A stretch of DNA of 42,333 bases from Candidatus Nealsonbacteria bacterium. Its GTDB lineage: Bacteria; Patescibacteriota; Minisyncoccia; Minisyncoccales; RBG-13-42-11. The first letter of the stretch is position 1; every line of letters begins with the position of its first letter. The notes beneath the pieces were generated by a model. It did not search any database. It saw only the letters and a list, made by a program, of their open reading frames with translations, and was not told the origin of the DNA. This document shows, piece after piece, positions 7,895 to 42,190 of this stretch. Made by a program: the position numbers and the translations under genes. The stretch spans positions 1-42,333 of the forward strand of contig JAPLXL010000003.1 of assembly GCA_026396115.1 (NCBI GenBank), written 5' to 3'.

Positions 7895-7925
7895 AAGGGT
7901 GAAGAAGAGATTTATCTCTTCGACT
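7895..7925 (-). repeat. Family I two-hairpin element, partial, upstream of rny
   Basis: AAGGGTGAAGAAGAGATTTATCTCTTCGACT. Confidence 0.85.
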
Positions 7926-7946
7926 ACCAAAATTTTAGTTTAAACT

Positions 7947-9476
7947 ATGAATCAATTTACCTCACTTATCGTAGGCATAATTGCCTTGGCAGCAGGTTCT
8001 GTTTTGGGTTACTATGCCCGTCAATCAATTGCCAAAAAACAGGCAGGCACCTTAGAGGCCAAACTTCAAAAAAAAGTTCTCAAAGCAAAACAAGAAAGTG
8101 AAACGATTTTCTCTACCGCTAAACAAAAAGTCCAGCAGATTTCAGAGGCAGCCCAAAAAGAAATAGACGAGCGGAGGTTTGAGGTTTTAAGAACCGAGCG
8201 TCTTCTATTAAAAAGAGAAAGTAATTTGGACCAAAAACTTTCTGCTTTTGAAAGAAACCAAAAGGAATTTGAAGTTAAAGTAGAAAAGCTTAGGGACATT
8301 AAAGAAGGCCTGGAAAATTTGAGACAGGAAGCAATAGACAACTTGGAAAGAGTTGCCAAACTTTCAAAAGAGGAAGCAAAAAAGGAATTGCTTCGGAATT
8401 CAGAAAAAGAGTATCAGCAGGAAATATTGGAGAAAATACGAAAGATTGAAAAGGAGGGTTGGGAAAAATACGAAGAAAAAGCAAAGGAATTATTAACTAT
8501 TGCCATTCAAAAGTGCGCTCTTAATCAGGCCCAAGAGATTACTACTACTTCTTTGACCTTGCCCTCAGAAGAAATCAAAGGAAGGATTATCGGAAAAGAG
8601 GGAAGAAATATCAGAACCTTGGAAAAACTAACCGGAGTTGAAATTATTGTTGATGAGACCCCGGAAGCTGTGGTTATTTCCGGTTTTGACCCCGTTCGCC
8701 GGCAAATCGCCAAAATCGCCTTGGAAAAACTAATTCAAGATGGAAGGATACAGCCAGCCAGAATTGAAGAGCAGGTCCAGAAAGCGGAAGTTGATATTTC
8801 AAAACAGATTAAAGAGGCGGGAGAGACAGCAGTTTATGATACGGGAGTGATTGGTCTTGACCCCAAAATAATTCAATTATTGGGAAGATTAAAATTCAGA
8901 ACAAGCTTTGGCCAAAACGCTCTGCTTCATTCAATTGAGGTAAGCCATTTGTCTGGAGCTTTGGCTTCAGAAATTGGAGCCGATTTTTCAGTTTGTAAAA
9001 AAGCCGGGTTATTGCACGACATTGGAAAATCAGTTGATCATCAAATTGAGGGCTCTCATGTTGATATTGGAATTAAGATTTTAGAAAAATTCGGCGTTGA
9101 AAAAAAAGTGGTTGATGCTATGAAATCCCATCATGAAGAATATCCTTATCAAACCCTTGAATCAATAATAGTTCAGGTCGCTGACCAAATATCCGGAGCC
9201 AGGCCCGGAGCAAGAAAAGACACTTTGGAAAACTATTTGAAAAGGTTGGAGGAATTAGAAAAAATTGCTTTGAGGTTTTCGGGAGTGGAAAAGGCCTGGG
9301 CTTTGCAAGCAGGCAGAGAGATTAGGGTTTTTGTCAAACCGGAAGAGATTGATGACTTGGAAGCAAAAAGTTTAGCCAAAGCCATTGCCCAGCAGATTCA
9401 GGAGGAATTGAGGTATCCCGGAGAAATTAAGGTCAATGTAATAAGAGAATTTAGAGTAATTGAACACGCTAAATAA
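7947..9476 (+). CDS. rny: Ribonuclease Y
   Basis: N-terminal TM helix, coiled coil, KH domain (KGRIIGKEGRNIR) and HD domain (LLHDIGK). Confidence 0.98.
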   Translation: MNQFTSLIVGIIALAAGSVLGYYARQSIAKKQAGTLEAKLQKKVLKAKQESETIFSTAKQKVQQISEAAQKEIDERRFEVLRTERLLLKRESNLDQKLSAFERNQKEFEVKVEKLRDIKEGLENLRQEAIDNLERVAKLSKEEAKKELLRNSEKEYQQEILEKIRKIEKEGWEKYEEKAKELLTIAIQKCALNQAQEITTTSLTLPSEEIKGRIIGKEGRNIRTLEKLTGVEIIVDETPEAVVISGFDPVRRQIAKIALEKLIQDGRIQPARIEEQVQKAEVDISKQIKEAGETAVYDTGVIGLDPKIIQLLGRLKFRTSFGQNALLHSIEVSHLSGALASEIGADFSVCKKAGLLHDIGKSVDHQIEGSHVDIGIKILEKFGVEKKVVDAMKSHHEEYPYQTLESIIVQVADQISGARPGARKDTLENYLKRLEELEKIALRFSGVEKAWALQAGREIRVFVKPEEIDDLEAKSLAKAIAQQIQEELRYPGEIKVNVIREFRVIEHAK

Positions 9477-9550: not shown

Positions 9551-9646
9551 AGGCGAAGAGAACTTCGTTCTCTTCTTCACCTTCGCTTCCATAAATGGAA
9601 GCTCGGTAAGAGATAAATCTTTTCTTTTGCTCTGTGCTATCGCTTG
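9551..9646 (+). repeat. Family I elements: full 57-bp copy (9551-9607) plus a second copy abutting the tRNA-Gly 3' end
   Basis: AGGCGAAGAGAACTTCGTTCTCTTCTTCACCTTCGCTTCCATAAATGGAAGCTCGGT, then AAGAGATAAATCTTTTCTTTTGCTCTGTGCTATCGCTTG. Confidence 0.9.
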
Positions 9647-9717
9647 AGCGGGTGATGGGAATTGAACCCACATAAATAGCTTGGAAAGCTATCACACTGC
9701 CATTGTGTTACACCCGC
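9647..9717 (-). tRNA. tRNA-Gly(TCC)
   Basis: Cloverleaf with acceptor GCGGGTG/CACCCGC, anticodon loop TT-TCC-AA and U73. Confidence 0.95.
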
Positions 9718-9792: not shown

Positions 9793-9916
9793 TCTTTTTG
9801 AATTTATCATGTTTTCAACTTTTTTTCAATTGTGGTAAAATTTAGATGATGAGATTTTTGCGAAATTTCATCTAAGAAGCTTCGTAAATTTCTAACGAAA
9901 TTTACTTGCTAAATTA

Positions 9917-10880: not shown

Positions 10881-10934
10881 GGTCGATGAAATTAAAATTT
10901 CATCTCCACCTTCGCCCGTTGAAACGGGCTCGGT
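10881..10934 (+). repeat. Family I element variant with compensatory stems, directly before a start codon
   Basis: GGTCGATGAAATTAAAATTTCATCTCCACCTTCGCCCGTTGAAACGGGCTCGGT. Confidence 0.8.
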
Positions 10935-13153: not shown

Positions 13154-13299
13154 AGTCGAAGAGGATAAATCCTCTTCTTCGCCCCTCGCTGCGGCTCGGG
13201 TAGTCGAAGAGATAAATCTCTTCTTCAGCCACCGAGCTTTCACGTAGTGAAAGTGAAGGTGAAAAAGAGGCTTGCCTCTTTGCCTTCATTGCGATTCGG
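13154..13299. repeat. Cluster of family I elements between pilB and pilC
   Basis: Copies at 13154-13201 (+), 13202-13227 (+, partial) and 13231-13285 (-), plus a tail fragment. Confidence 0.9.
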
Positions 13300-14541: not shown

Positions 14542-16358
14542 AATTTTCAATTTTCAATTACCAAGTGTTAGCGAAAGTGGAAAAGAAGAAAATCTTCTTC
14601 TCTGACTTTCAATTTTCAAAGAGAGGTTTTACTTTTATTGATGTGATGGTAGGCACGGCTTTGGTGCTCATTATCTTTATGGGAATTTTTAGTGCATATC
14701 AGTTAGGAATGAAAGCGGTTGGGCAGGCAAAAAATAAAATTACAGCAACCGCTTTGGCTAACGAGCAAATAGAAAAAATTAGAAATTTACCCTACGAATC
14801 AGTAGGTATTATAGACGGACAATTGCCTGTTGCTGTCGGAGTTTTGGCCTCATCTACGAACATTTTTTTAAACAATGTAGAGTATTTTGTTAAAAGAAAT
14901 ATTGAATACATTTCTGATGAAGCTGATGGAATTGGCGATGAAGATGAGTGTGATTTGGATTATAAAAGAGCCGAGATTAAAGTTTCTTGGGGAGGAAGAT
15001 TTTTAGGAGAAGTAAAGATGGTTACAGACATCGCTCCCAAAAATAAATTTGAAGAAATTGCTTCTTGTGAAGCCCAGCCCGGAGGAATTCTTTCTGTCAA
15101 GGTTTTTGACGCTTATGGCATAATGGTTGTCTCTCCTTTAATTGAAGTTTTTGAAGAGGTGAGCGGAGAATTGATTGCCTCTTATATGCCACTCAGCGGC
15201 AAAAAAGATATTCCTTTAGCTACTTCTACTTACAAAGTACTTGTTTCTAAAACCGGTTACTGCACAGATAGAACATACGGCACAGATGAAATTACTACTC
15301 CAATAAAGCCTCACCCAATAATTTTAGAGAAGCAAACTACAGAAATTAGCTTCTCTATTGATAAAATTAGCGCTTTTTCAGTAAATACTTTTTCCCCTTG
15401 GGGAGAAAGTATTTGGGCAGATTCTTTCCAAGACACCAGCAAGATTTTTGAAATGGAGAATGTGGTTGTGGCTGGAGGAGAAGCAAAATTAGCTACCACT
15501 ACCGAGGGTTATTATCCTTCCGGTTTTTTAATTTCCACTGAAATTTCGCCGACAAATTTACTGAATTGGAATGAATTTATTTTTACAGACTCAGAACCAA
15601 TTGATACAGATTTGAAATACCGGATTTATTATGCCACCAACACCAGTTGGGAGCTTATTTCAGATACAGACTTGCCGGGTAATTCAATAGGCTTTGACGA
15701 AAGTCCAGTGGATTTATCAGGATTAGATTCGGCTATCTACCAAAAACTTAAACTCAGAGCCAATTTTTTAACTAACACCATAACCACTACTCCGACTCTT
15801 TACGATTGGCAGGTTTCTTGGATTACTTCTGAAGCCACACCAATTCCTAATGTGACTTTTAATTTAAGAGGAGCTAAACTTATTGGCTATGATGTTAATG
15901 AAAATCCGATTTATAAATATTCTCAAAATTCTGCTTCCACTAACCAGGGTCAGATTGATACTGTGGGTTTGGAATGGGACAATTATACTTTTTCTGTTGA
16001 TACTGAAACCAGTTTAAATTTAGTAGGGATTGATCCTGAGCCTCAGCCGATTGGTTTGATACCAGACACCATCTTGCAAGTAAATTTATATTTGGAATCA
16101 GAAAATTCTCTTTTGGTTACTGTTCAAAATATTGAGACCTTAGAGCCCATATTTTCAGCCGCAGTCAGATTGTTTAATTCTGGATTAGGTTATGATACTA
16201 CTCAGTATACAAATGAGAAAGGTCAAACTTATTTTATTTCTTTGACTGCTACCACTTACAATTTAGAGGTTCAGGCACCAGGATGTTTAGATTATGAGGG
16301 TCAAGTTTCTGTTTCGGGCAATACGACAAAGACAGTGGGACTTGAGAGAGTGGAATAA
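14538..16358 (+). CDS. Large minor pilin (PilV-like) with C-terminal beta-sandwich domains
   Basis: Prepilin site KRG|FTFID plus a hydrophobic helix, EKIRNLPY, and a Thr-rich extracellular region. The leader contains a family I element. Confidence 0.75.
   Translation: MKFSIFNYQVLAKVEKKKIFFSDFQFSKRGFTFIDVMVGTALVLIIFMGIFSAYQLGMKAVGQAKNKITATALANEQIEKIRNLPYESVGIIDGQLPVAVGVLASSTNIFLNNVEYFVKRNIEYISDEADGIGDEDECDLDYKRAEIKVSWGGRFLGEVKMVTDIAPKNKFEEIASCEAQPGGILSVKVFDAYGIMVVSPLIEVFEEVSGELIASYMPLSGKKDIPLATSTYKVLVSKTGYCTDRTYGTDEITTPIKPHPIILEKQTTEISFSIDKISAFSVNTFSPWGESIWADSFQDTSKIFEMENVVVAGGEAKLATTTEGYYPSGFLISTEISPTNLLNWNEFIFTDSEPIDTDLKYRIYYATNTSWELISDTDLPGNSIGFDESPVDLSGLDSAIYQKLKLRANFLTNTITTTPTLYDWQVSWITSEATPIPNVTFNLRGAKLIGYDVNENPIYKYSQNSASTNQGQIDTVGLEWDNYTFSVDTETSLNLVGIDPEPQPIGLIPDTILQVNLYLESENSLLVTVQNIETLEPIFSAAVRLFNSGLGYDTTQYTNEKGQTYFISLTATTYNLEVQAPGCLDYEGQVSVSGNTTKTVGLERVE
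14560..14607 (-). repeat. Family I element (48 bp), in frame in the pilin leader peptide
   Basis: ACCAAGTGTTAGCGAAAGTGGAAAAGAAGAAAATCTTCTTCTCTGACT interrupts a TTTTCAA heptamer run. Confidence 0.75.
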
Positions 16359-16402: not shown

Positions 16403-16456
16403 AGTCGAAGAGGACTTCGTCTTCTTCTTCACCTTCACTTCCTTCGGAAGCTTGGT
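16403..16456 (+). repeat. Family I element (54 bp) directly before ATG 16459
   Basis: AGTCGAAGAGGACTTCGTCTTCTTCTTCACCTTCACTTCCTTCGGAAGCTTGGT. Confidence 0.9.
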
Positions 16457-16458
16457 AT

Positions 16459-17439
16459 ATGAAAGGATTTACTCTTATTGAAACCATAGTAACTATTGTC
16501 ATTTTCACTATTATTTTTGGTGTGGTTAGCGCCTTCATTATTATGGCTTACAGGACTCAGGGGTATACTTGGCAGCAGTCGATGGCCATAAATGAAGCCA
16601 GAAGAGGAATTGAAACTATGGTTAAAGAAATTAGGGAAGCAAGGCCAGGCGATGATGGTTCCTACCCAATTGTTTATGCTGGTGATAAAGAATTCATATT
16701 TTTTGCAGATATTGATAAAGATGGCGCAACAGAAAGATTGAGGTATTTTTTGGGGACAGTGGATTCTGGGAGTCAAGCTCAAAAATGCGTCACTTTTACC
16801 AAAGGCGGAACTTGCAGTGTTAGTTTTTCTAATTTTTTAAAAGGAAATTTAAAATCAACCCAAGTGAAAATTTCAGTGGAAGGAGATTTGGGAGCTTCTA
16901 ATGAATATGTTGAAATTTTTGCTGATGGAGTAAAATTAGAAAATCTTTGCCAGACAGGTTGTACAGATTGTGCTGTAACCTGGCAAGGAACCCAAACTTT
17001 TGATGTCACCGATTTGACAAAAGACAATTCCATTCAATTTTTAGCTGATGCCACTATCCATGTTGATTCTCAATGTAGTTGGGAAGAACCAAATCACGCA
17101 ATGAAAGCCATTTTTGAGTTAAGCTGGAATGAAGAAGTTATTGGAGCCGGCAATGAGCTTAAGAAAGGAGTAATAAATCCGGTGGCAGGATCGGGCGGGA
17201 AAATTACTTATCCTTTAGACCAAGAAGAAGTTACTATTTTAACTTCTTATGTCCGTAACGTTCCGCCAATTTTTAGATATTTTGATCAAGATGGGCAAGA
17301 GTTAATTGAGACCCCTGCTCGGCTTAAAGACACTAAGGTAATGGAAGTTTATTTAATTGTTAATATTGATCCAAACCGGCCGCCTCAGGATTTTGAATTA
17401 AGGTCGGCTGTTCAACTTCGCAATCTTAAAGATGAATAA
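16459..17439 (+). CDS. Minor pilin (PilW/PulJ-like)
   Basis: MKG|FTLIE prepilin motif, KEIREA, C-terminal SAVQLRN. The start is chosen after the repeat. Confidence 0.8.
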   Translation: MKGFTLIETIVTIVIFTIIFGVVSAFIIMAYRTQGYTWQQSMAINEARRGIETMVKEIREARPGDDGSYPIVYAGDKEFIFFADIDKDGATERLRYFLGTVDSGSQAQKCVTFTKGGTCSVSFSNFLKGNLKSTQVKISVEGDLGASNEYVEIFADGVKLENLCQTGCTDCAVTWQGTQTFDVTDLTKDNSIQFLADATIHVDSQCSWEEPNHAMKAIFELSWNEEVIGAGNELKKGVINPVAGSGGKITYPLDQEEVTILTSYVRNVPPIFRYFDQDGQELIETPARLKDTKVMEVYLIVNIDPNRPPQDFELRSAVQLRNLKDE

Positions 17440-18958: not shown

Positions 18959-19068
18959 ATGTTCAATGAATCTTTGATTCATTTCACCTTTGAGTTCAAT
19001 GAATCTTTGATTCATTTCGATCTTCATTAAATTTTCAATTTAATTCGATGTTCAATGAATTTTTAATT
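18959..19068 (+). repeat. Family II palindrome array (4 units)
   Basis: TTC-AATGAATC-TTT-GATTCATT-TC twice, the variant TTC-ATTAAATT-TTC-AATTTAAT-TCG, and one partial unit. Confidence 0.85.
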
Positions 19069-31834: not shown

Positions 31835-31856
31835 ATATCAAGTTTTCGCATAGCGA

Positions 31857-32025: not shown

Positions 32026-32057
32026 AATTCGATTTTAATAAATTAAAATCTCGCTTT

Positions 32058-32711
32058 ATGACTATTTTTTGGCACGGACAATCTTGTTTTCAAATAATAT
32101 CGAGCCAAGGGAAGAACAATCACGTCAATATTGTTATTGATCCGTATTCTGAAGATATTGGTTTGAAAGTTCCTAAACTTGCGGCAGATATTTTATTAGT
32201 GAGCCATGGTCATCATGACCACAATAATGTCAAAGCGGTCGGAGGCAATCCTTTTTTAGTTTCCGGACCCGGCGAATATGAAATAAAAGAAGTTTTTATT
32301 CAAGGGATTCCCGCCTTTCATGATTCATCCTTGGGAAAAGAAAGAGGCACCAACACCATTTATACTATAGAAACTGAAGAATTAAAGCTTTGCCATCTTG
32401 GAGATCTTGGTCAAAAAGAACTAACCTCAGAACAAATTGATAAAATAGGCCAAGTTGATATTCTAATGATTCCCATAGGTGGAGTTTATACAATTTCAGC
32501 CAAAGAAGCAGTTAAAATAATGTCTCAAATCGAGCCAAACATTATAATTCCCATGCATTATCAGTTGCCAAAATTAAAATTAAAACTTGATGGTCTGGAT
32601 AAATTTTTGAAGACAATGGGAATGAAAAAATTGGATTCCTTGCCAAAATTATTCATAAAAAAGAAAGATATTTTACCGGAGGAAGCGAAAATAATAGTAT
32701 TGCAGCCATAA
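32058..32711 (+). CDS. Metallo-beta-lactamase-fold hydrolase
   Basis: WHGQSCF, IDPY, SHGHHDH, HLGDLG and IPMHY. Confidence 0.9.
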   Translation: MTIFWHGQSCFQIISSQGKNNHVNIVIDPYSEDIGLKVPKLAADILLVSHGHHDHNNVKAVGGNPFLVSGPGEYEIKEVFIQGIPAFHDSSLGKERGTNTIYTIETEELKLCHLGDLGQKELTSEQIDKIGQVDILMIPIGGVYTISAKEAVKIMSQIEPNIIIPMHYQLPKLKLKLDGLDKFLKTMGMKKLDSLPKLFIKKKDILPEEAKIIVLQP

Positions 32712-32777
32712 TTTATTATCTTTTAGCAATGGTTGCCACGTGGTTGCTTAGATTAGCTGAGCAATAGCCCGTTTCAG

Positions 32778-33050
32778 ATGAATATCTTACAAAAAATCCG
32801 GAACCAATCGGAAAAGACTCGAAAAGTAATTTTATGGGTGATAGTGATTATTTTTGGTTTGATTTTATTCTTTTTTTGGATAAAAAACGTTCAAAGTAAA
32901 TTAGAAAGTTTTCAAAAGGAAGAATTTAAAGAAAAATTAAATCTCCCGAAACTGGAAGTGCCAAAAATTGAAATGCCAAAGTTTGAAATGCCAGAGTTTT
33001 CAGAAGAGGAATTAAAGAAGTTAGAGGAGACGATGGGAGAAACAGAATAA
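32778..33050 (+). CDS. Small membrane-anchored hypothetical protein
   Basis: One TM helix and a pentapeptide repeat PKLEV-PKIEM-PKFEM-PEF. Confidence 0.7.
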   Translation: MNILQKIRNQSEKTRKVILWVIVIIFGLILFFFWIKNVQSKLESFQKEEFKEKLNLPKLEVPKIEMPKFEMPEFSEEELKKLEETMGETE

Positions 33051-33061
33051 CCGCTTGACGA

Positions 33062-33161
33062 ACCGAGTTTCCGAAGGAAGCGAAGTCGAAGAGATAAATC
33101 TCTTCTTCGCCCTTCGTTGCGACTCGGGTAGGTGAAGAAGAGTACAAAGTACTCTTCGCCT
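33062..33161. repeat. Nested family I pair upstream of gyrA
   Basis: The outer (-) copy is split at GCGAAG|GTGAAG by an inner (+) copy at 33086-33129, with AG on both sides. Confidence 0.92.
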
Positions 33162-33170
33162 AATAAAAAT

Positions 33171-35651
33171 ATGGCGAAAGATTCTCAAAAACAAAATACC
33201 GAGATAGGTCATGTCAAGCCCCGGGAAATCACCGAAGAAATGCAGGAATCCTATATTAATTATGCAATGTCGGTCATTGTTTCCCGAGCTCTGCCGGATG
33301 TCAGAGACGGATTAAAACCTGTTCACCGTCGGATTTTGTATACGATGCTGGAAGAGGGTTTGAGACATACCGCTAAATTCAGAAAATCAGCAAATGTTAC
33401 TGGGAATTGCCTTGCTCGTTATCATCCGCATGGCGATATAGCGGTGTATGATGCTTTAGTCCGTATGGCTCAAGATTTTTCGTTAAGATATCCTTTGATT
33501 CAAGGTCAAGGTAATTTTGGCAGTGTTGATGGGGATAGTGCTGCAGCTCCTCGTTACACTGAGGCGCGGCTTTCAAAAATCGGAGAAGAAATGCTTAAGG
33601 ACATTGAAAAAAACACCGTTGATTTTATAGATAATTATGATGGAACGAGAAAAGAACCAACCGTTTTGCCTTCTCCTGTTCCCCAGCTTTTGTTGAATGG
33701 CTCTTTGGGAATCGCTGTTGGTATGGCGACTAATATTCCCCCTCATAATCTGTCAGAGGTCTGCGATGCTTTAATTTATTTAATTGATAACCCAAAGGTT
33801 GATACTGAGGAACTTTTTAAATTTATACAGGGGCCAGATTTTCCTACCGGCGGCATAATTTATGACCAAAAAGGAATAATTCAGGTCTATTCTCAAGGCA
33901 AAGGACCTATTATTGCTCGGGGTAAGGTTGAAATAATGGAGCAGGAAAAAACGGGACGCCAACGCATTATTATTACTGAAATTCCATTCCAGGTTCAAAA
34001 ATCAACTCTAATTGAACAGTTTGCCAATTTAGTTCAACAAAAAAAGATAGAAGGGATAAAGGATATTAGGGACGAATCTGATAAGGAAGGACTTAGGATT
34101 GTTATTGAGCTTTCTCGAGACGCTTATCCTCAAAAAATTCTAAATCGTCTTTATAAATTCACCGACCTTCAAAAAACTTTTCACTTCAATATGCTGGCTT
34201 TGGTTGATGGAATCCAGCCAAGAGTTTTGAATTTGGTTGAATTGTTGGATTATTTTATCAGCCACAGGAAAGAAGTGATTACCCGGCGGATGAAATACGA
34301 GCTGGAAAAGGCCAAAGAGAGAGTCCATATTTTGGAGGGCTTGCATAAGTGTCTGGCCAATATTGACGAGGTAATTAGAATAATTAAAAATTCAGCCGAC
34401 AGAGAAGAGGCAGAGAAGAATTTAATTAAAAGATTTCGTTTAACAAAAATCCAGGCAAACGCCATTTTGGAAACAAAGCTTTCAGCTTTGGCTAAACTAG
34501 AAAGAAAGAAAATTGAAGACGAGCGAAATGCACTTGAAACAAAGATTAAAGAGCTTACGGGAATTCTTAAAAGTCCTCAAAAGATAAAAGGAGTGGTCAA
34601 AAAGGAATTAAAAGAAATTAAAGATAATTTTGGCGACGAGAGAAGGACAAAAGTTCATATTCAAAAAATAGGAGAAATTGCCGAAGAAGATTTGATTCCT
34701 CAAGAAGAAACAATTATTACCCTGACCCAGGGTGGCTACATTAAGAGAATTAATCCTAAAACCTATAAAATTCAAAAAAGAGGAGGAAAGGGAATTTTAG
34801 GAATGAAGACTCTTCAAGATGATGTTGTTGAACATTTCCTTTCTGCCCAAACCCATGATTCTTTGCTTTTTTTTACTGATTCTGGAAAAGTTTTTCGCGT
34901 TCCTGTATATGAAATTCCCGAAGGTCAAAGAGTTGCCAGGGGAAGAGGCCTTTTAAACTTTCTTGAGATTTCTTCTCAGGACAAGATTTTATGCCTCCGG
35001 ACGCTGAGCAAAAGAGACCAAGAGCAGGGCATTAGATATTTGTTTATGGCTACCAAGAGAGGTATAATAAAAAAAACCCCTTTAACCGACTTTGATAATA
35101 TCAGGAAAACGGGCTTAATCGCTATTTCTTTAAAAAAAGGAGACGAACTTAAAAATGTCCAAAAAACTATTGGCCAGGATGAGATAATTCTTGTCAGCAG
35201 AAATGGTCAATCCATTCGTTTTAAGGAAAAAGAAGCAAGGCCAATGGGAAGAACGGCTTCCGGCATAAGAGGGATTAGATTAAAAAAAGGAGACGAGGTG
35301 GTAGCACTTGATGTAATTAGAAATATAAAGCAAAATGAACAAAAGGTAAAAGAATATTTGGCCGTTATTACCGAAAACGGATTTGGCAAAAGAACCGATA
35401 TTAAAGAATATAAAGCCCAGGGAAGAGGAGGTTCAGGAATCAAAACTGCAAATATTAACCAGAAAACCGGAAACATAACTGCCGCAAAAGTTCTTACGGG
35501 CCAAGAAGAAAACTTAATTGTTATTTCCCAAAGAGGCCAAGTTATCAGAATAAAAATTTCCCAGATTTCAAAACTTTCCCGAGCTGCTCAAGGAGTGAGA
35601 TTAATGAGGTTAGAACAGGGCGACAAAGTGGCGTCGGTTACCTGTGTATAA
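33171..35651 (+). CDS. gyrA: DNA gyrase subunit A
   Basis: [29 protein letters not shown] and GyrA-box QKRGGKG. The start is moved to ATG 33171, after the repeat. Confidence 0.98.
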
Positions 35652-35663
35652 TGCATATAATTA

Positions 35664-35717
35664 AGGCGAAGAGGACTTCGTCCTCTTCTTTATCTTCGCT
35701 TCCTTCGGAAGCTTGCT
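35664..35717 (+). repeat. Family I element (54 bp) at the 5' end of the methyltransferase gene
   Basis: AGGCGAAGAGGACTTCGTCCTCTTCTTTATCTTCGCTTCCTTCGGAAGCTTGCT. Confidence 0.9.
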
Positions 35718-35719
35718 AT

Positions 35720-36244
35720 ATGATGAAGGGAGATTTTCTTAAACCAAACGAAGTTTTAAAAAAATTTAAATTAAAAGAAGACATGATAGCTGCTGATTTT
35801 GGTTCAGGTAGCGGCGGTTGGGTGATTCCTTTGGCAGAAAAATTGGAAGATGGAAAAATTTATGCCATAGACATTTTAGAAGAACCGCTTTCAGTCCTAA
35901 GAGCAAAAGCAAAATTGGCAAAAATTTCCAACATTCAGACGATTCTGGCCGATGTTGAAAAGAAAACAGAAATTTTTGAGGAAAGCTGTGACCTGGTTTT
36001 AATAACCAACCTTCTTTTCCAGTCAGATGACAAAAAAAAGGTTTTAGAAGAAGCCGAAAGGGTTTTGAAAAAAGGTGGCAGGGTTTTGGTGGTTGATTGG
36101 AAGGAAGACGTGTCATTGGGGCCAGAAGAGGGCATGGTTTCGCCGGAAGAAGTAAAAGAATTGGCTCTTGACCTTAATTTAAGAATTGAAAAGGAATTTG
36201 AAGCCGGCCCTTATCATTATGGTTTGATCTTTACTAAAGATTAG
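35720..36244 (+). CDS. Class I SAM-dependent methyltransferase
   Basis: ADFGSGSG, IYAIDI and RVLKKGGRVLVVDW. The start could alternatively be 35651, read through the repeat. Confidence 0.88.
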   Translation: MMKGDFLKPNEVLKKFKLKEDMIAADFGSGSGGWVIPLAEKLEDGKIYAIDILEEPLSVLRAKAKLAKISNIQTILADVEKKTEIFEESCDLVLITNLLFQSDDKKKVLEEAERVLKKGGRVLVVDWKEDVSLGPEEGMVSPEEVKELALDLNLRIEKEFEAGPYHYGLIFTKD

Positions 36245-36272
36245 GTACGGGATAAAATAAACCCAGTAGAAT

Positions 36273-36614
36273 ATGAATTTAAGAAAAGAAATATTTATTT
36301 TAGTTTTGCCTTGTTTAATTTTTCCATCTATTGTCATTGGAACTAGTTCGGTTATTCAGCTTGAACCGCCGACAAAGTACAATACTTTTGGAGAATTAAT
36401 TGAGGCAATTATTGATTTTATTTATAAAGTTGCTTTGGTTTTGGCCCCCTTGTTTATTGTTATTGCCGGTTTTTATTTTGTTACTGCTAGCGGCGATCCG
36501 GCAAAAATTAAAACCGGTCAAGATATAATTAAATATACTTTAATTGGCTTGTTGATTATTCTTCTTGCCAAAGGTTTAATCGCTGTTATTCAAAGCGTTT
36601 TGGGTGTACAATAA
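36273..36614 (+). CDS. VirB2/TrbC-like pilin (CPR type)
   Basis: Signal peptide and two hydrophobic helices joined by AGFYFVTASGDPAKI...IKYTLIG. Confidence 0.8.
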   Translation: MNLRKEIFILVLPCLIFPSIVIGTSSVIQLEPPTKYNTFGELIEAIIDFIYKVALVLAPLFIVIAGFYFVTASGDPAKIKTGQDIIKYTLIGLLIILLAKGLIAVIQSVLGVQ

Positions 36615-36673
36615 TATAATAAAACTTTCAAAAGGTCGAAAAATTAGAAATCAAAAATAATGGGGATTAAAAA

Positions 36674-37012
36674 ATGAAAACGAAAAAATATTTATTGAGC
36701 CTGACTTTAGTAAGCCTTTTGGCAGTAAGCCTTTTAGCCTTACCCGCAAAAGGATTAGCTGCAACTTCTACCTTGGAAGATCTTGATGTGGAGGATATCC
36801 TAACAAAAATCGTTAACTGGCTTATTACAATTTTGTTGGTAGTAGCAGCGCTTTTTATTGTCTTAGCTGCTTTCACCTTTGTTACTGCTGGAGGTGACCC
36901 AGAGAAAATAAACACGGCGAGAAATCAAGTACTGTATGCTTTAATAGGAGTAGGGGTAGCCCTTTTGGCTTGGGGTTTGGTTGCCTTAGTGCAAAAGATA
37001 ATAGGGGTGTAG
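36674..37012 (+). CDS. VirB2/TrbC-like pilin (CPR type)
   Basis: Signal peptide and FVTAGGDPEKINTARNQVLYALIG. Confidence 0.82.
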   Translation: MKTKKYLLSLTLVSLLAVSLLALPAKGLAATSTLEDLDVEDILTKIVNWLITILLVVAALFIVLAAFTFVTAGGDPEKINTARNQVLYALIGVGVALLAWGLVALVQKIIGV

Positions 37013-37144
37013 AGTCTTAAAATTTTTATTACAAAAAGTAATTTCTCGAGAGAGTGAACGTCTTGAACAAGAGGATTAATTAATCCTGCTTTCTTAAACG
37101 CCTGTTTTTGGATAGAAAGCAGGATTGATTTTTATGTTCAAAAT

Positions 37145-37226
37145 GTCGGAGTGGCGGAACCGGAAGACGCGCTGGGTCTAGGACCCAGTGGGGAAACCCG
37201 TGAGAGTTCAAGTCTCTCCTCCGACA
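37145..37226 (+). tRNA. tRNA-Leu(TAG)
   Basis: Long variable arm, loop TC-TAG-GA (C33). Confidence 0.9.
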
Positions 37227-37272
37227 CCCGAGCCGTAGTGAAGGGTAAAGAAGAAGATTTATCTTCTTCGCC
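37227..37272 (-). repeat. Family I element abutting the tRNA-Leu 3' end
   Basis: CCCGAGCCGTAGTGAAGGGTAAAGAAGAAGATTTATCTTCTTCGCC. Confidence 0.9.
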
Positions 37273-37277
37273 CACCT

Positions 37278-37305
37278 AAAAATCCTGTTTTTGGCAGGAT
37301 TTTTT
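37278..37305. terminator. Bidirectional terminator
   Basis: AAAAATCCTG...CAGGATTTTT. Confidence 0.8.
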
Positions 37306-37336
37306 GTTTAGAAATTAAAAATTTCTAATTTTTAAT

Positions 37337-38026
37337 TTATTCTCTAACAATAATTCTTCTTTTCTTTTCTCTTAAAATTTTAGGGATTCTAATTGTCAGA
37401 ATGTTGTTTTTCATTTCAGCCACAGCTCTTTGCGGGTCAACTTCAGAGGGCAGTATCACTTCTCTTGAAAAAGGTCCCCAAAAACATTCTTGGATAAAAT
37501 AGTCGCCGTTTTCTTCAAATGGTTTTTCTCTGCTTCCCTTAATGGTAATAATGTCTCTTTCAATTGAAATATCTAAATTTTCCGGCTTAACTCCGGCAAT
37601 TGCTGACTGAATAACCAAATCATTTTCGGTTTGATAAACATCAATTGCCAATTGTCCCTCTTCTATTTTGCCAAAAGAGGGCCATTTTTTTTCTTTTTGT
37701 TCCTTTAGTTCTTTTGGAGGTTCTTTTTCAGCCTGTTCTTTAACTTCTTCTTCTTCTCTTTCTTCTTCTCTTTCTTCTTCTGGCATTTTTGTTTGTGTTT
37801 CTAATTTTCTAATTTTTACTTCCGGCGATTCCTTTTCTTTTTTGGCAGTCGAAGAGAACTTCATTCTCTTCTCCACCTTCGCTTCCTTAGGAAGCTCGGT
37901 TTTTAATTTTTTCGGTTCTTTGCCCGTTTTTGTTTCAATTGGTTTTTCTTCTATTTCTTTTTCTGGTTCAGCAATTGGTTCTTCAATATCCATCCCCCTT
38001 TTTAATTTTTCAAAAAATGACGCCAT
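37337..38026 (-). CDS. Hsp20/alpha-crystallin family small heat-shock protein with a long charged N-terminus
   Basis: EGQLAIDVYQT, IAGVKPENLDI, ECFWGPFSR and NILTIRIPK. Confidence 0.9.
   Translation of the reverse strand: MASFFEKLKRGMDIEEPIAEPEKEIEEKPIETKTGKEPKKLKTELPKEAKVEKRMKFSSTAKKEKESPEVKIRKLETQTKMPEEEREEEREEEEVKEQAEKEPPKELKEQKEKKWPSFGKIEEGQLAIDVYQTENDLVIQSAIAGVKPENLDISIERDIITIKGSREKPFEENGDYFIQECFWGPFSREVILPSEVDPQRAVAEMKNNILTIRIPKILREKKRRIIVRE
37847..37900 (+). repeat. Family I element (54 bp), in frame in hsp20
   Basis: AGTCGAAGAGAACTTCATTCTCTTCTCCACCTTCGCTTCCTTAGGAAGCTCGGT, encoding TELPKEAKVEKRMKFSST. Confidence 0.93.
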
Positions 38027-38029
38027 ATA

Positions 38030-38737
38030 TTATATTTTACACGTGCTTTTTAATTTTTTCAACCTTTTAAAAGCAAAAGCGAGAAAAATCGCCAAACTGA
38101 TTAAAATGATAATTGGAATTAACCAGGAAAATATTCTTTCTAATTCCATAATAGAAAAATTATAGAGTCCGTGCAAGAGGGTAGATATCCCCACCCCGAT
38201 GATTAAAAGCACGCTTCTTTTTTTTGTTTCAAAAATAGATAAAGCCAAAAAATAGCCGAGAGTTCCGGAGCATAAGGCGTGTAAAAAAGTTGCTCCCCAG
38301 AATCTTAAAACGCTGATTGTAAAAACCTCCTCGAATAAAAAAGCTGGGCCCAAGGAAAATAAAATTAAAATATTTTCTGCGGCGGCAAAGCCAAGAGCCG
38401 CGATTATCATATAAAGCATTACATCTATCGGCTCGTCAAATTCCGGGTGGTCCAGAACTTTTTCTCTTACCACCAAGTATTTTAAAAATTCTTCCACCAG
38501 AGCTATTCCGATAAAAACATTAAGAAAAGTTAAAAAAATTAAGGGCAATTTTAATTCTGTAAAGACCTTAAGAATTCCCATTTCCAATAAAATAGCGGGT
38601 AAAGCTGCCAACATTCCATAAAAGAAAATTTTTAATACCATTTGATTGGATTCGGGGTGCGAATCTTTTCTCAAATAAAATAAAAGCCAGATAAGGCTGG
38701 GCAAAACTCCAAAAAATATATAGAAAGGATAAGACAT
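38030..38737 (-). CDS. prsW: PrsW-family intramembrane metalloprotease
   Basis: D.HPE, VEEFLK, LGFAAAEN, FLHA and LHGLYN. The start is placed at MSYPF. Confidence 0.9.
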   Translation of the reverse strand: MSYPFYIFFGVLPSLIWLLFYLRKDSHPESNQMVLKIFFYGMLAALPAILLEMGILKVFTELKLPLIFLTFLNVFIGIALVEEFLKYLVVREKVLDHPEFDEPIDVMLYMIIAALGFAAAENILILFSLGPAFLFEEVFTISVLRFWGATFLHALCSGTLGYFLALSIFETKKRSVLLIIGVGISTLLHGLYNFSIMELERIFSWLIPIIILISLAIFLAFAFKRLKKLKSTCKI

Positions 38738-38795
38738 TTTAAAAATTTCTAATAGGAGTCCACCAAAGATGGGAAGGTGGTGGGTGGGTTGTAGT

Positions 38796-41036
38796 CTAAA
38801 CCGGCCAGTTTTCAATCATTAGACATTTCTTTTTGTTTTTAATCGGCAGCTTTTGATAAATTTCTTCGGTGATAAAAGGGATAAAGGGATGTAAAAGTTC
38901 CAAGTTGGTTTTTAAAATTTGCAAAAGAAGGTATTGGCTAGCCTCCTTTTCTTTTTTATTGGAGCCCTGAAGCCGAGATTTTTCTTCCTCAATAATTTTA
39001 TCGCAAAAAATATGCCAGAAATAATGATAAATTTTTTCTGCCGCTTGGTAAAATTTGAAGGAGTCCATCAACTTGGTAATTTCTTTTGAAAAGCTGTTTA
39101 ATTCCCTTAAAATTTTCTTATCTTTTTTAGTTAATTTTGGCTTAATTTTGGGGTCAAAACCTTTTAGATTCATCAAGACAAACCGGCTGGCATTCCAGAT
39201 TTTATTGGCAAAATTGCGCATCCCCCTGATTTTATTATCGCTGATACAAATATCGGTTCCCGGCGTTGTTCCAAAGATGACTGACATCCTTAAAGCGTCT
39301 GCTCCATATTTTTGCACCATATCCATTGGATCGAGAACATTTCCTTTACTCTTTGACATCTTCTGACCATTTTCATCAACTACTCGGCAGTGAATATGAA
39401 CTATTTTAAAGGGAACCTCTTTTGTCAAATAAAGGCCGAACATTATCATTCTGGCAACCCAGAAAAACAAAATGTCCCACAGCGTATCCAAGACCGATGT
39501 TGGGTAGAAATATTTAAAGTCTTTGCTCTTTTGATAGCCAAGCGCGGTCAGCGGCCATTGTCCAGATAAAAACCAGGTGTCAAAGGTGTCTGTTTCTTGC
39601 AGAATTTTTTTACCTTTACATTTTTGGCAAGCTTTTTCCTCCAAAGAATAAACAGGATTTTTACTAGCGCTTAAACTTTGCAATCCTTTTTTGATTTCAG
39701 CAAAGTTGTATTTGTCCTTTAAATCTTTATAGGTTCCGTTTATTTTATTGCCTTTTTTATTAATAAAATTGATTAAAATATCAGGGTTGCAATCCAAGCA
39801 ATACCAAACTGGTATTTGAGGGCCCCAGACAATTTGTCTTCCAATATTCCAGTCACGGACATTTCTCATCCAATTAAGATACATTTTTTTAAATCTCTTT
39901 TCTGGAATAATCTTTATTCTTTCTTTTTCAACAGCTTCTAAGGCTGGTTTTGCCAAAGGTCCGATTTTCAAAAACCATTGAGGCATAATTAACGGCTCAA
40001 TAGTTGTTTTACAACGATAACAAATTCCTATTGAGTGCTTCAAGGGTTCAGTTTTTACCAGTTTTTCTGCTTTTTCCAAATCATTTATTGTTTTTTCCCG
40101 AGCCGTTTTTACTGTCAGGCCAAGATACTTTTCTGGCAGATTTGTCATTCTTCCATTTTTGTCAATAATGGTGATGGTTTCTAGGTTGTGAGTTTGGCCG
40201 ATTTCGTAGTCAGTGGTGTCGTGGCCAGGGGTTACCTTCAAGACTCCGGTACCAAAGTTAACATCGATTCTTTTGTCGGCGATTATGGGTACCTCTTTGT
40301 TAATGAGCGGGATAACAGCCTTTTTACCAATGAGATTTTTATATCTTTTGTCTGTTGGATTTACGGCTACGGCCACGTCCGCAAAAATAGTTTCTGGTCT
40401 CGTGGTGGCAATTTGCAAAGTCGTGTAATCCAAATAGTAGAGGAACTCGTCTTTTTCTACATAGTCTACTTCCAGGTCAGAAAAAGCAGTGCCGCATTTG
40501 GTGCAAAAATTCACAATTCTTTCTCCTCTGTAAATTAAGCCATCCCGATGCAGTTTACGGAAAGTGTCAAAAACTATTTTGACAATGTTTGGTTCAAGAC
40601 TGTAATGGTACCTAGTCCAGTCTAAAGAAAATCCTAATTTTTTAAGTTGTTCCCTATTTATATTTTTATTTTTTTCAACAAATTCAGAAATCATTTTGTA
40701 TAAGGTTTTTCTGCCAAAATCAAAACGGCTTTTTCCTTCTTTGGCCAATCTTTTTTCAAAGACAAACTGCGTTTCAATCCCAGCATGGTCACCTCCTGGC
40801 AACCAGAGAGTCGGTCTGCCTCGCATCCGATAGTATCTAATTATAATATCTTCTACTGCAAAAAGAACATGACCCATGTGCAGAGGATCATTGGCGTTGG
40901 GGAGAGGTAAGAGGATGGTGAAAGGTTTTTTACGAGGAACGATTTTGGGAGTAAACCAGCCACCTTTTTCCCAAAACTTATATATTTTACCTTCAACTTT
41001 TTTTGGTTCGTAAGTTTTAGAAAGTTCTGAGTTCAT
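38796..41036 (-). CDS. valS: Valine--tRNA ligase (short, no C-terminal coiled coil)
   Basis: PN...LHMGH, DHAGIETQ, TTRPET, DTFDTWF, FFWVARM and KMSKS. Confidence 0.96.
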   Translation of the reverse strand: MNSELSKTYEPKKVEGKIYKFWEKGGWFTPKIVPRKKPFTILLPLPNANDPLHMGHVLFAVEDIIIRYYRMRGRPTLWLPGGDHAGIETQFVFEKRLAKEGKSRFDFGRKTLYKMISEFVEKNKNINREQLKKLGFSLDWTRYHYSLEPNIVKIVFDTFRKLHRDGLIYRGERIVNFCTKCGTAFSDLEVDYVEKDEFLYYLDYTTLQIATTRPETIFADVAVAVNPTDKRYKNLIGKKAVIPLINKEVPIIADKRIDVNFGTGVLKVTPGHDTTDYEIGQTHNLETITIIDKNGRMTNLPEKYLGLTVKTAREKTINDLEKAEKLVKTEPLKHSIGICYRCKTTIEPLIMPQWFLKIGPLAKPALEAVEKERIKIIPEKRFKKMYLNWMRNVRDWNIGRQIVWGPQIPVWYCLDCNPDILINFINKKGNKINGTYKDLKDKYNFAEIKKGLQSLSASKNPVYSLEEKACQKCKGKKILQETDTFDTWFLSGQWPLTALGYQKSKDFKYFYPTSVLDTLWDILFFWVARMIMFGLYLTKEVPFKIVHIHCRVVDENGQKMSKSKGNVLDPMDMVQKYGADALRMSVIFGTTPGTDICISDNKIRGMRNFANKIWNASRFVLMNLKGFDPKIKPKLTKKDKKILRELNSFSKEITKLMDSFKFYQAAEKIYHYFWHIFCDKIIEEEKSRLQGSNKKEKEASQYLLLQILKTNLELLHPFIPFITEEIYQKLPIKNKKKCLMIENWPV

Positions 41037-42190
41037 AATTTTTCATCTATTTTAAGATTAGCATTAGCTTTAATCTTTTTCCATACCTTTTTTTTATACC
41101 ACTTGAAATATCCGGCAATTGCTACCATTGCGGCATTGTCGGTGCAAAAATTTTTTGCCGGAACCAAAAAATTTATTGCTAATTGTCGATTGCTAATTGT
41201 TAATTGAAATTGTTTTCTCAGCTCAGTATTAGCAGCGACGCCGCCGCTCAAAATGATTGATTTTGCTTTATAATCTTTAGCCACTTTTAAGGTTTTATGG
41301 ATTAAAACATCAATAATTGCCTGCTGAGTTTCAGTACACATTTCCTCTATATATTTTTTTGACCTTCTGACTTTTGAAGAACGTTTTTTGAAATCATACA
41401 AAACCGCTGTTTTCAAACCGGAGAAACTAAAATCATAATTTTTTTGATAAATCATCGGTCTCGGCAAAAAAACACGGGTTCGACCTGTGTATTTTTGCCT
41501 GTGTTTTTTAGCCAGGGTTGAAATAATCGGACCACCGGGGAAGCCGAGCCCTAAAATTCTAGCTGCTTTATCAAAACATTCACCAGCCGCATCGTCGCGA
41601 GTTTCTCCTAAAATTTTGTATTGGCCGAATTTCTTCACCCCATTAGAAGATTTTCGATTTCTAACGGGGTTCATTAAAATAAGTTGAGTGTGCCCGCCAC
41701 TGACCACTAAACAAATTGCCGGAAAGATATTTTTGTAATTTGTAATTTGTAATTTGGAATTTTCGCCAATAAAATTGGCGAGAATGTGTGCCTCTATGTG
41801 ATTTATTGGGACTATTGGCAATTTCATCTTTTCTGCCAACTCCTTGGCAAAATTTATTCCTGTCCATAAGCAAAGTTCCAGACCGGGGCCAATGGTAACT
41901 GCAATTAAGTTAATTTTTGGATTACCGGCTTCTTTTAAAGCTCTTTTTAAAACTATCGGTAAATTTTTTTGATGTTCTTTTTTAGCTAAAAAAGGATAAA
42001 CCCCTCCATATTTTGCATGTAGTTTTACTTGCGATGAAACCACATTACTTCTAATTTCGAAAGGCGAAGAGAACTTCGTTCTCTTCTTCACCTTCGTTTC
42101 CATAAATGGAAGCTCGGTTTTCGAATTTCTAATTTCTAAAACAGCGACGCAGGTATCATCGCAACTTGTTTCAATGGCTAAAATAATCAT
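41033..42190 (-). CDS. tsaD: tRNA N6-threonylcarbamoyl transferase TsaD with several repeat-derived insertions
   Basis: IETSCDDT, HIEAH, SGGHT, DDAAGECFDK, FSFSGLKT and CTDNAAM. Confidence 0.97.
   Translation of the reverse strand: MIILAIETSCDDTCVAVLEIRNSKTELPFMETKVKKRTKFSSPFEIRSNVVSSQVKLHAKYGGVYPFLAKKEHQKNLPIVLKRALKEAGNPKINLIAVTIGPGLELCLWTGINFAKELAEKMKLPIVPINHIEAHILANFIGENSKLQITNYKNIFPAICLVVSGGHTQLILMNPVRNRKSSNGVKKFGQYKILGETRDDAAGECFDKAARILGLGFPGGPIISTLAKKHRQKYTGRTRVFLPRPMIYQKNYDFSFSGLKTAVLYDFKKRSSKVRRSKKYIEEMCTETQQAIIDVLIHKTLKVAKDYKAKSIILSGGVAANTELRKQFQLTISNRQLAINFLVPAKNFCTDNAAMVAIAGYFKWYKKKVWKKIKANANLKIDEKL
42062..42118 (+). repeat. Family I element (57 bp), in frame in tsaD
   Basis: Identical to 9551-9607 at 56 of 57 positions; encodes TELPFMETKVKKRTKFSSP. 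Confidence 0.95.

Follow-up and report, generated by a model that had tools for sequence, protein, structure and literature searches.

A mobile two-hairpin miniature element in genomes of the order Minisyncoccales that behaves like the Rickettsia palindromic elements

The 42,333-nucleotide (nt) stretch of DNA analyzed here (hereinafter the window) is the entire contig C8 (JAPLXL010000003.1) of a Candidatus Nealsonbacteria genome (denoted G000; 792 kb in 8 contigs, 35-36% G+C, rated 100% complete) and contains numerous copies of a short repeat that consists of two hairpins. This two-hairpin element is mobile and inserts as a unit without target-site duplication; a T-R-A (or Y-G-A) motif, which belongs to the target and is present there before insertion, lies 3 nt downstream of the insertion point. 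Its presence or absence is observed at three levels, namely among strains, among genomes of the same genus, and among genera; the element is spread through one order of Parcubacteria. The explanation that we consider probable is that the repeats constitute one family of selfish miniature DNA elements, 48-58 nt in length and non-autonomous, which insert without duplication, are directed by T-R-A and are mobilized in trans. The family is classified here as undescribed and as similar to the Rickettsia palindromic elements.

The genomes G021 and G008, both members of the same genus, contain 44 copies of the element (E ≤ 0.01) and none, respectively. For 37 of the 44 copies, both 250-nt flanks are collinear in G008 (75-100% identity), and the element is absent from all 37 of these loci; the remaining 7 copies could not be mapped. 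In the 15 best-resolved pairs of loci, the net difference is the element itself, with a length of 38-63 nt in most cases. Five pairs show no mismatch within 8 nt of the junction, and in these the gap can be slid by only 0, 1, 1, 0, and 1 nt, which implies that no target site is duplicated. An earlier note, prepared from the sequence of the window, had proposed that the repeat is a non-autonomous mobile element and that orthologous loci should be compared for filled and empty sites; the comparison bears out the proposal, given that such sites are found among strains, within a genus, and between genera.

Among genera, the alignment of 30 UvrC orthologues includes a single protein, that of G000, with an 18-residue insert, NRASKGSEGEEEGETLFA, between the conserved FRIK and LQGKPND; the insert corresponds to 54 nt, that is, to the element. 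Copies at three other positions of UvrC are found in G013, G017, and G055. In the case of infB, 29 orthologues lack both the copy at 24746-24792 of the window and the tandem pair at 23849-23944, which adds 2 x 16 residues ending in RPP to the product, and copies elsewhere in infB are present in G021 and G012.

Strains were compared by mapping contigs of other metagenomes (assembled contigs, not raw reads) on positions 22334-42333 of the window. A contig from run X10 (1230 nt, ~97% alike) joins 24744 to 24795 with 2 letters in between and accordingly lacks the infB copy. Contigs from runs X3 and X4 join 30453 to 30587, skipping 133 nt (30454-30586), and a contig from run X4 joins 33062 to 33164 with one letter in between, so that a 101-nt cluster is absent (the shorter side of this joint, 30 letters, is borderline). 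The joints 31856>31911 and 31945>33065, with sides of 21-27 letters, were set aside. A 2407-nt contig from run X3 has ~44 extra letters between 23429 and 23432, after tRNA-Ser, possibly an additional copy (letters unread).

The unit has the form AGK-CGAAGAR-(apex)-YTCTTC-TTCA-CC-TTC-GC(stem-loop)GC-TC-GGT. In hairpin 1, the lower stem CGAAGAR/YTCTTC is invariant and the apex is free, the loop being TTC or, in other copies, GAA or TAAAT. A TTCA-type linker follows and leads to hairpin 2, which comprises a 3-bp base ACC/GGT, a pyrimidine internal loop TTC/TC, and a GC-closed stem of free sequence and length, with an upper stem of between 0 extra pairs (TGCG loop, the 48-nt 'short type') and 8 bp. 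The consensus of the earlier note was recovered and only has to be extended by T-R-A at positions +4 to +6 after ...GCTCGGT, although this motif is part of the target. All the stem variants listed in that note were located in the window: hairpin 1 variants GAAGAGAAC at 9555 and GAAGAGGAC at 35668, stem variants GAAGAGTAC/GTACTCTTC at 33137/33149 and GATGAAATT/AATTTCATC at 10885/10896 and 32002/32013, and hairpin 2 variants GCCCGT/ACGGGC at 10914/10924 and CTTTCAC/GTGAAAG at 13237/13247.

A covariance model, R1, was built from an alignment of 23 long-hairpin copies; MAFFT alone misaligned hairpin 2, and the second alignment was therefore restricted to copies of this type. When 150 copies from the genome were aligned to R1, 95.7% of the cells in the stems were paired compared to 83.1% in shuffles (none of the 500 shuffles reached the observed value) and 52-66% when the partners were slid by 1-3 columns; 355 cells were changed on both sides vs 94 in shuffles, and double-sided changes affected 15 of the 18 stem pairs, with the qualification that an alignment fitted to R1 itself favors pairing. 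G-U pairs are rare (for example, one pair is GC in 66 copies, AU in 61, and GU in 3). One orthologous intergenic copy shared by two genera (G021 and G004) differs in the stems of both hairpins, which nevertheless remain complementary, a sign of compensatory change that is independent of the model-fitted alignment. The claim that both stems vary by compensatory change is thereby upheld.

In the window, repeat finding recovered a 57-nt family and its fragments on both strands, R1 yielded 24 matches (E ≤ 0.001), all within 7869-42118, and nhmmer yielded 27 non-overlapping matches (E ≤ 10) on both strands, none of them before 7897. These counts agree with the previous estimate of about 30 copies or fragments, in both orientations, within 34 kb. 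Matches to a degenerate pattern that covers hairpin 1 and the linker number 8 in the window vs 0.02 expected (100 shuffles, largest value 1). Genome-wide, R1 gives at least 162 matches in G000 (150 of 1358 candidates scored) and nhmmer gives 330 non-overlapping matches, of which 232 have E ≤ 0.01; the latter occupy 10,807 nt, or 1.36% of the 792 kb, with 119 on the plus strand and 113 on the minus strand. Apart from complete units, lone hairpins 1, tandem units, and overlapping inverted composites are seen.

The insertion point is defined by the flank after ...GGT, which reads N-N-N-T-R-A, with T in 61, R in 92, and A in 90 of the 94 full copies of G000. The A at +6 is found in 17 of 17 loci of relatives and in 62 of 65 copies in other metagenome-assembled genomes (MAGs); in the closed genome G055, the counts are T 28, R 30, and A 30 of 30. 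The T-R-A consensus is weakly present in the left flank as well. Among the five cleanest empty sites, three contain the motif (GGT-TAA, ATA-TGA, and AAT-TGA), one is ambiguous, and one is an exception; in UvrC, the target motif overlaps the conserved Ile-Lys codons. The possibility that T-R-A is the stop codon of an upstream open reading frame (ORF) that reads through the element was rejected (1 of 72 cases), as was avoidance of GAAGAG/CTCTTC as a restriction site outside the elements (observed/expected 0.96).

The 232 copies of G000 were classified against gene calls made with our own ORF heuristic (766 genes, 90% coding). Intergenic copies number 104, 63 copies are located inside long ORFs, 49 in the 5' extension of the longest ORF, 15 across the 3' end of an ORF, and 1 in both a 5' extension and a 3' end. 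The 63 copies (27%) are in frame within ~51 long ORFs, 32 in the sense and 31 in the antisense orientation, mostly in two frames, and give predicted peptides of the GEEDKSSSSPFAAAR and TELPFMEAKVKKRTKSSSP types, including GEEDKSSSSPFA- and TELPFMEAKVKK-type stretches. In all ten host ORFs that were chosen among these for domain scanning, housekeeping domains lie on both sides of the copy or around it; the hosts encode UvrC, phosphoglucomutase, FtsQ, AlaRS, a PBP transpeptidase, IleRS, UvrB, Pol III delta, S1, and MurB. The infB gene (IF-2) is a further host of in-frame copies, and in G055, from another family of the order, 19 of 74 copies are inside ORFs. In an AlphaFold2 model of UvrC (mean pLDDT 83.8), the insert region 301-324 is predicted as coil, with pLDDT below 50 at 304-314, flanked by a confident strand and a confident helix, and no other row of the alignment has residues at this position; the model is only consistent with the insert being a tolerated loop. 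The in-frame copies may be translated into short hydrophilic surface loops tolerated by selection, as in the case of the Rickettsia palindromic elements.

Another favored location is immediately before start codons. An ORF of at least 60 residues starts at +3 after 25 of the 132 copies with a defined 3' end (~19%; 23 ATG and 2 TTG), and these ORFs have typical N-termini, such as MKGFTLIE (pilin) and MAKDYIKIRGARVHN; in G055, this is the case for 7 of 30 copies. One empty site reads AAAATAATATG and has no Shine-Dalgarno-like sequence, and the start-adjacent copies might persist because the respective genes would have no such sequence to disrupt. Between co-directional genes, 57 copies are in the sense and 27 in the antisense orientation (n=84). 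The in-frame placement of 27% of the copies within genes, the target motif, and the placement 2 nt before starts all go beyond the earlier note.

Among 60 relatives, R1 matches 28 genomes, namely 20 of the 25 from the same family (all of them in other genera) and 8 of the 35 from other families of the order, with 1 to 100 matches per element-bearing relative. A sample of 150 genomes of the class (145 from other orders) gave no match at E ≤ 1e-5 with stricter filters. An exact-pattern scan of the genomes of 185,579 species returned at least 50 stretches; all the matches listed are in MAGs titled Candidatus Nealsonbacteria, Parcubacteria group, Minisyncoccales, 'bacterium', or, in the case of third-party assemblies, Candidatus Saccharibacteria. 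The IMG/VR viral contigs contain no match to the core pattern. Judging from these searches, the family is confined to one order (Minisyncoccales, "Nealsonbacteria") and patchy within it. The earlier note had not recognized the sequence, and it indeed corresponds to no described Rfam family: in the window only tRNAs reach the gathering score, and the copies themselves have no match even at E ≤ 1 (7.7 kb scanned). The literature on palindromic and miniature repeats in Parcubacteria and the wider Patescibacteria, supplements aside, yielded no description of it.

The copies in the window are as follows (coordinates, strand where assigned, description).
7869-7925, minus: copy with a long A+T-rich hairpin 2 (R1 41.4 bits), 21 nt upstream of the RNase Y gene (7947-9476; Pfam RNase_Y_N/KH/HD).
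9551-9607, plus: full 57-nt copy, the best match in the genome (R1 82.9 bits), located past the end of the RNase Y gene and before tRNA-Gly/Pro.
Just after the 9551-9607 copy: a decayed hairpin 1.
10881-10934, plus: full copy (R1 47.2 bits) with the variant stems GATGAAATT/AATTTCATC and GCCCGT/ACGGGC, separated by 2 nt from the ATG of a downstream response-regulator gene (in the longer ORF, Pfam Response_reg begins at residue 21).
13154-13200 (plus), 13202-13238 (plus), and 13231-13285 (minus): three-unit cluster (R1 34.0, 27.4, and 53.5 bits) between the T2SSE (pilus ATPase) and T2SSF genes.
14570-14600, minus: weak decayed fragment at the junction of two ORFs (nhmmer E=0.42 only).
16403-16456, plus: full copy (R1 70.2 bits), with only 2 nt between its end and the ATG of a pilin-like gene (MKGFTLIE...).
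19069-19119, minus: full copy (R1 58.3 bits), antisense to and upstream of pilM (19127-20230; Pfam PilM_2).
23004-23049, plus: copy with a short hairpin 2 (R1 49.0 bits) in the divergent spacer between an HtrA-like protease gene and tRNA-Arg.
23849-23944, minus: tandem pair of short-type copies (48 nt each) that lie in frame within the 5' part of infB (R1 28.0 bits for 23898-23944; nhmmer for 23869-23895).
24746-24792, plus: short-type copy in frame inside infB (R1 29.6 bits), peptide GGEDKSSSSPFAVAR.
26781-26804, plus: hairpin-1-only fragment beside the 3' flank of tRNA-Gly (nhmmer E=0.12).
30406-30600: cluster upstream of ftsH and the S1 gene, with R1 matches; it consists of a full copy in antisense (30406-30462), a short copy in sense orientation (30473-30520), and a ~75-nt composite (30531-30600).
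31124-31182, plus: diverged copy in frame in the ribosomal protein S1 gene (30686-31834, minus; Pfam S1 x4), between S1 repeats (R1 24.0 bits; nhmmer E=0.006).
31856-31945: full copy in sense orientation (31856-31910) that adjoins a hairpin-1 unit in antisense (31885-31945) (R1 55.7 and 25.5 bits).
32002-32057, plus: diverged copy just before the ATG (32058) of a metallo-beta-lactamase-fold gene, identified by sequence and under both model thresholds.
33062-33161: overlapping cluster (hairpins 2', 1, 2, and 1'; R1 26.8, 32.8, and 38.0 bits), ~10 nt upstream of the likely gyrA start (Pfam DNA_topoisoIV).
35664-35717, plus: full copy (R1 70.6 bits) between gyrA and a methyltransferase gene, ending beside ATGATG.
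37226-37273, minus: short-type copy (R1 32.5 bits) abutting the 3' end of tRNA-Leu (37144-37229).
37847-37900, plus: full copy (R1 71.7 bits), antisense in the 5' third of the longest Hsp20 ORF (37337-38026, minus), coding or leader; the HSP20 domain begins only at residue 131 of this ORF.
42062-42118, plus: full copy (R1 79.5 bits), antisense in the 5' extension of the TsaD ORF (41033-42190, minus), with TTTCGAA on both flanks; it probably sits in the leader, the TsaD domain beginning at residue 45.

The starts of the longest ORFs at 10886, 33132, and 35651 fall within copies, the likely true ATGs being at 10937, ~33172, and ~35721. The ~75-nt composite GTGCGAAGAAAAGTTTTTCTTCTTTCGTCTCGTC…CGAAGTCCTCTTCGCC is found nearly unchanged in at least 7 places (window 30531-30600; G000 contig C1 64560, C2 1462, 35060, and 36873, C3 30838 and 68066) and gives the impression that units have become permanently fused and now spread together. 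The two tRNA-Gly genes (9626-9717 and 26802-26893) have a common 20-nt trailer beyond the tRNA, which in each case is directly adjoined by a hairpin-1 unit. The orthologous copy of G021 and G004 (loci L027 1200-1600 and L030; G021 C4 ~16800-17080; G004 C15) tips a conserved long-range stem, TTAATCGCTT … AAGCGATTAA, which lies in the leader of a gene whose product contains HLIAEFWNG; no Rfam family matches this leader, and in G008 the same leader is present without the element.

Several features of the window are distinct from the element. Positions 1-7800 have a G+C content of 29-30% vs 34-40% elsewhere and contain no copy of it; a 56-nt pair, 84% alike (3754-3809 and 6730-6785), lies inside this low-G+C first 7.8 kb. 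Spacers before genes at 18963-19083, 21282-21369, and 23413-23472 are occupied by another repeat family, which is rich in A+T, consists of small hairpins in tandem (TCAATGAATTTTCAATTCATTTC-like units), and has no sequence kinship to the two-hairpin element. A 43-nt inverted pair (9871-9913 / 27673-27715; 88% complementary, itself palindromic, …CGTAAATTTCTAACGAAATTTAC…) is located in two spacers.

A number of observations weigh against the interpretation of the repeats as selfish DNA elements mobilized in trans. The source genome, despite its completeness, has no Y1 gene over the Pfam cut-off and lacks IS110, rve, and RT; in five high-copy genomes, DDE_1 is absent and IS256 is represented in only one, G017, where the gene is incomplete. 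G000 contains no long form in which the two ends of the element enclose an ORF. Single-strand transposition of the IS200/IS605 type would predict a replichore strand bias, and none is seen in the closed genome G055 (17+:12- and 25+:20-; small numbers). Pairing between a guide and the target, examined as linker TTCA/TTTA vs flank TGA/TAA, was rejected (odds ratio 1.03). Direct 7-nt repeats (at least 6 of 7 bases) are present on both flanks of 5 of 94 copies in G000 (control mean 1.2, maximum 5) and of 5 of 65 copies in other MAGs (control mean 1.1, maximum 5). Two genomes do not fix whether the copies were gained in G021 or cleanly lost in G008, and the outgroup alignments cover two genes. Finally, the gene calls come from a heuristic, the translation of the in-frame copies is putative, and lengths that are multiples of three (3n) are only mildly enriched inside genes (16 of 23 vs 20 of 41, p=0.12).

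The statement of the earlier note that no transposase is encoded in the window extends to the whole of G000: none was found in the families searched (serine recombinases, IS91, ISL3, IS630, and other DDE families were not searched). Two candidates were discarded. The single TnpB match in G000 is sub-threshold (17.1 bits), zinc-ribbon-like, and located inside a 709-residue ORF. With respect to an autonomous long form, matches with hairpin 2 only have a hairpin 1 at 34-47 nt or several kb away, never in a single-ORF arrangement.

This negative result is what could be expected if the element spreads without a dedicated enzyme, by uptake of DNA and recombination, by conversion between copies, or by switching of templates at the hairpins; it would then be a recombination-driven repeat or one that resembles an uptake sequence. 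Pili and competence functions are encoded in the order (the pilus genes of the window; DprA, ComM, and YraN), a DprA-ComM-YraN cluster is shared by G021, G000, and G055 but missing in the element-free G008, and the differing stems of the orthologous copy of G021 and G004 fit conversion between copies. Nevertheless, DprA is unlinked to the element (19 of 29 element-bearing vs 24 of 32 element-free genomes). Small GIY-YIG nucleases, which are likewise present in G021, G000, and G055 but not in G008, do not track the element either (16 of 29 vs 14 of 32; both hand tallies). Moreover, exact units at a fixed 3-nt distance from a fixed motif point to specific recognition rather than homology, and the flanks have no homology to donor sites. 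We regard enzyme-free spread as improbable, albeit the best of the alternatives. Independently of the element, the YraN-ComM-DprA cluster (G021 C3 136138-138932, locus L209; absent in G008) is patchy across the order, with DprA in 43, YraN in 33, and ComM in 37 of the 61 genomes, and YraN and ComM are patchy in the same way as DprA, which suggests repeated loss of transformation-linked recombination genes. The stand-alone small GIY-YIG nucleases reach up to 7 copies per genome, several with stop codons (e.g., G021 C9 15057-15344 and 78245-78538, C3 5111-5437), and are possibly mobile in their own right.

Mobilization of a REP/REPIN-type element by a RAYT (Y1 HUH transposase) of the same genomes, an analogy drawn in the earlier note, would account for the short imperfect palindromes, the conserved 5' flank, the frequent inverted and tandem clusters, and the lack of target duplication. 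RAYT-like Y1 genes are widespread in the order, with 31 of 61 genomes scoring over the Pfam cut-off (~230-250 residues, within a range of 210-290). The analogy fails at the level of the enzyme, because Y1 genes are missing (over the cut-off) not only from G000 but also from the high-copy genomes G013, G017, and G043 and are distributed independently of the element (15 of 29 element-bearing vs 16 of 32 element-free genomes; hand tally). Six Y1 loci have no copy, the copies nearest to a further Y1 gene, that of G055, are 5.4 and 6.4 kb away, and with 27% of the copies intragenic, the element is hardly 'extragenic'. The REP/RAYT reading is thus largely refuted and is given very little weight.

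A classical miniature inverted-repeat transposable element (MITE) derived from a DDE transposon, which would move by cut-and-paste and duplicate 7 bp of the target, is comparably unlikely. It is suggested by the heptamers enumerated above, which match on the two flanks of some of the best-conserved copies (TTTCGAA, TTTCAAT, TTTTGAT, CTTTGAA, and TTCTAAT). In these cases, however, the flanks are tandem heptamer arrays, which can explain the likeness without duplication, and the direct filled/empty pairs, with a net insertion equal to the element and a slide of 0-1 nt, speak against a 7-bp duplication; the inserts in UvrC and infB are exactly 54 and 48 nt. In addition, the terminal inverted repeats are only ~3 nt long, and DDE_1 and rve are absent from the genomes searched, with IS256 limited to one of five high-copy genomes. 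Given the clean pairs, the flank heptamers would be a property of the target and not a duplication. Tandem heptamers of the TTTYRAW type, which flank some of the best-conserved copies on both sides (window 42047-42061 and 42119-42133; loci L116, L084, and L104), could reflect either a hot spot that was visited more than once or a property of the target.

There is equally scant reason to regard the copies as regulatory sites instead of selfish insertions, maintained by selection for a function as structured RNA, be it as leader, terminator, processing site, or small RNA. Both hairpins covary, sense copies are in excess between co-directional genes (57 of 84, p ~0.001), and ~19% of the copies end exactly 2 nt before a start codon. 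Against these stand the 63 copies inside ORFs in both orientations, the rarity of G-U pairs, the lack of any Rfam match, and the fact that G008 thrives without any copy. The element is not an intrinsic terminator either: TTTT occurs within 8 nt after only 9 of 132 copies, and a large number of copies lie within genes or ahead of starts. Some copies may nevertheless have acquired a secondary use for the host.

The least probable proposal is that the in-gene copies are untranslated, being cut from the mRNA or bypassed by the ribosome like tiny introns: although the copies are strongly structured and 7 of the 23 full-length in-gene copies are of non-3n length, the frame is open through all 63 (which were found on that basis), no split genes are seen, neighboring partial units can offset non-3n lengths, and an RNA-level removal signal would not tolerate both orientations.

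Returning to the favored explanation of a selfish element mobilized in trans, the movement would involve folded single-stranded or cruciform DNA and a site-specific, duplication-free ('peel-and-paste'-like) enzyme, other than a RAYT/Y1 gene linked to the element, that recognizes the invariant stem bases and loops; the apical stems would need only to pair and could hence drift by compensatory change or be swapped between copies. We infer this mechanism from anatomy alone, i.e., from the exact, duplication-free, motif-directed insertion of a hairpin-ended unit, and place it at the level of DNA rather than RNA owing to the rarity of G-U pairs and the presence of both orientations in genes. Of the two forms suggested in the earlier note, an ssDNA- or RNA-structured element, the former is compatible with the data, given that duplication-free insertion fits a single-strand or site-specific route, and the latter is not supported. 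More tentatively, and with less confidence than attaches to the family itself, the mover might be a duplication-free, motif-directed system new to transposition, either host-encoded or an unrecognized nuclease or recombinase that reads both hairpins, given that none of Y1/RAYT, TnpB, IS110, rve, DDE_1, IS256, and reverse transcriptase tracks the element. The in-frame copies would then be translated, and 'protein-coding palindromes' would have arisen independently a second time, reshaping essential proteins and the regions of translation starts throughout an order of ultra-small bacteria.

Among the known systems, the insertion mode of the two-hairpin element is closest to that of IS200/IS605, and its behavior is closest to that of the Rickettsia palindromic elements. 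The IS200/IS605 elements have hairpins at both ends, produce no target duplication, and recognize a short specific motif on one side only. The two-hairpin element shares the end hairpins, the lack of duplication, and the one-sided motif, and its last bases on the other strand (TCG...) resemble the target (TYA...); it differs in that the search for a cognate TnpA was negative, the motif stands 3 nt away from the junction, replichore bias is absent, and the guide examined does not covary with the target. With REP/REPIN-RAYT systems it has in common the short imperfect palindromes, the conserved stem foot, the clusters and inverted pairs, and the hundreds of copies, the differences being the intragenic fraction and the absence of a link to Y1/RAYT genes. 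The ERIC, Correia, BOX, and QMITE1 repeats possess long terminal inverted repeats and are accompanied by target duplications, whereas the two-hairpin element has neither. These repeats are named in a review (PMC10969869) as MITE-like bacterial repeats with intragenic copies; they resemble the present family in being small and non-autonomous and, in some cases, in producing in-frame fusions.

The Rickettsia palindromic elements, as described in the same review, are ~100-150 bp long and are found in spacers and in frame in housekeeping genes (Ogata et al., 2000, 2002, via PMC10969869). The two-hairpin element is like them in that short palindromic repeats with no known transposase populate both the spacers and, in frame, unrelated housekeeping genes of a reduced genome; the predicted insert position may be compatible with the protein fold. 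As expected of an element of the Rickettsia type, it lies in frame in unrelated genes and is absent from the UvrC and infB orthologues. On the same basis, it is unlike them in its length (48-58 nt vs ~100-150 bp), in the two distinct hairpins with a fixed linker, in the host (Parcubacteria, not Alphaproteobacteria), and in the occurrence of one sequence family across families of an order; a defined T-R-A at 3 nt, duplication-free insertion, and precise placement at start codons also set it apart. The comparison was made by behavior, not by sequence, and the family is accordingly considered to work like the Rickettsia palindromic elements and not to be a member of that group.

In practical terms, gene callers will misplace starts at copies of the element, and assemblies tend to break there. 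The family is easy to study, being short and conserved across an order, with clean empty sites in the same genus, a defined target, and strain differences in public metagenomes, and the movement of palindromic repeats that lack an enzyme of their own becomes testable in this system. The in-frame invasion of essential genes by palindromes, treated as a peculiarity of Rickettsia, is now found in an unrelated lineage with tiny genomes, where it accounts for up to 1.4% of the DNA. These observations suggest that reduced genomes, in which spacer DNA is scarce, push selfish repeats into coding sequences, and that some of the extra loops in the proteins of these bacteria originate from repeats of this kind.

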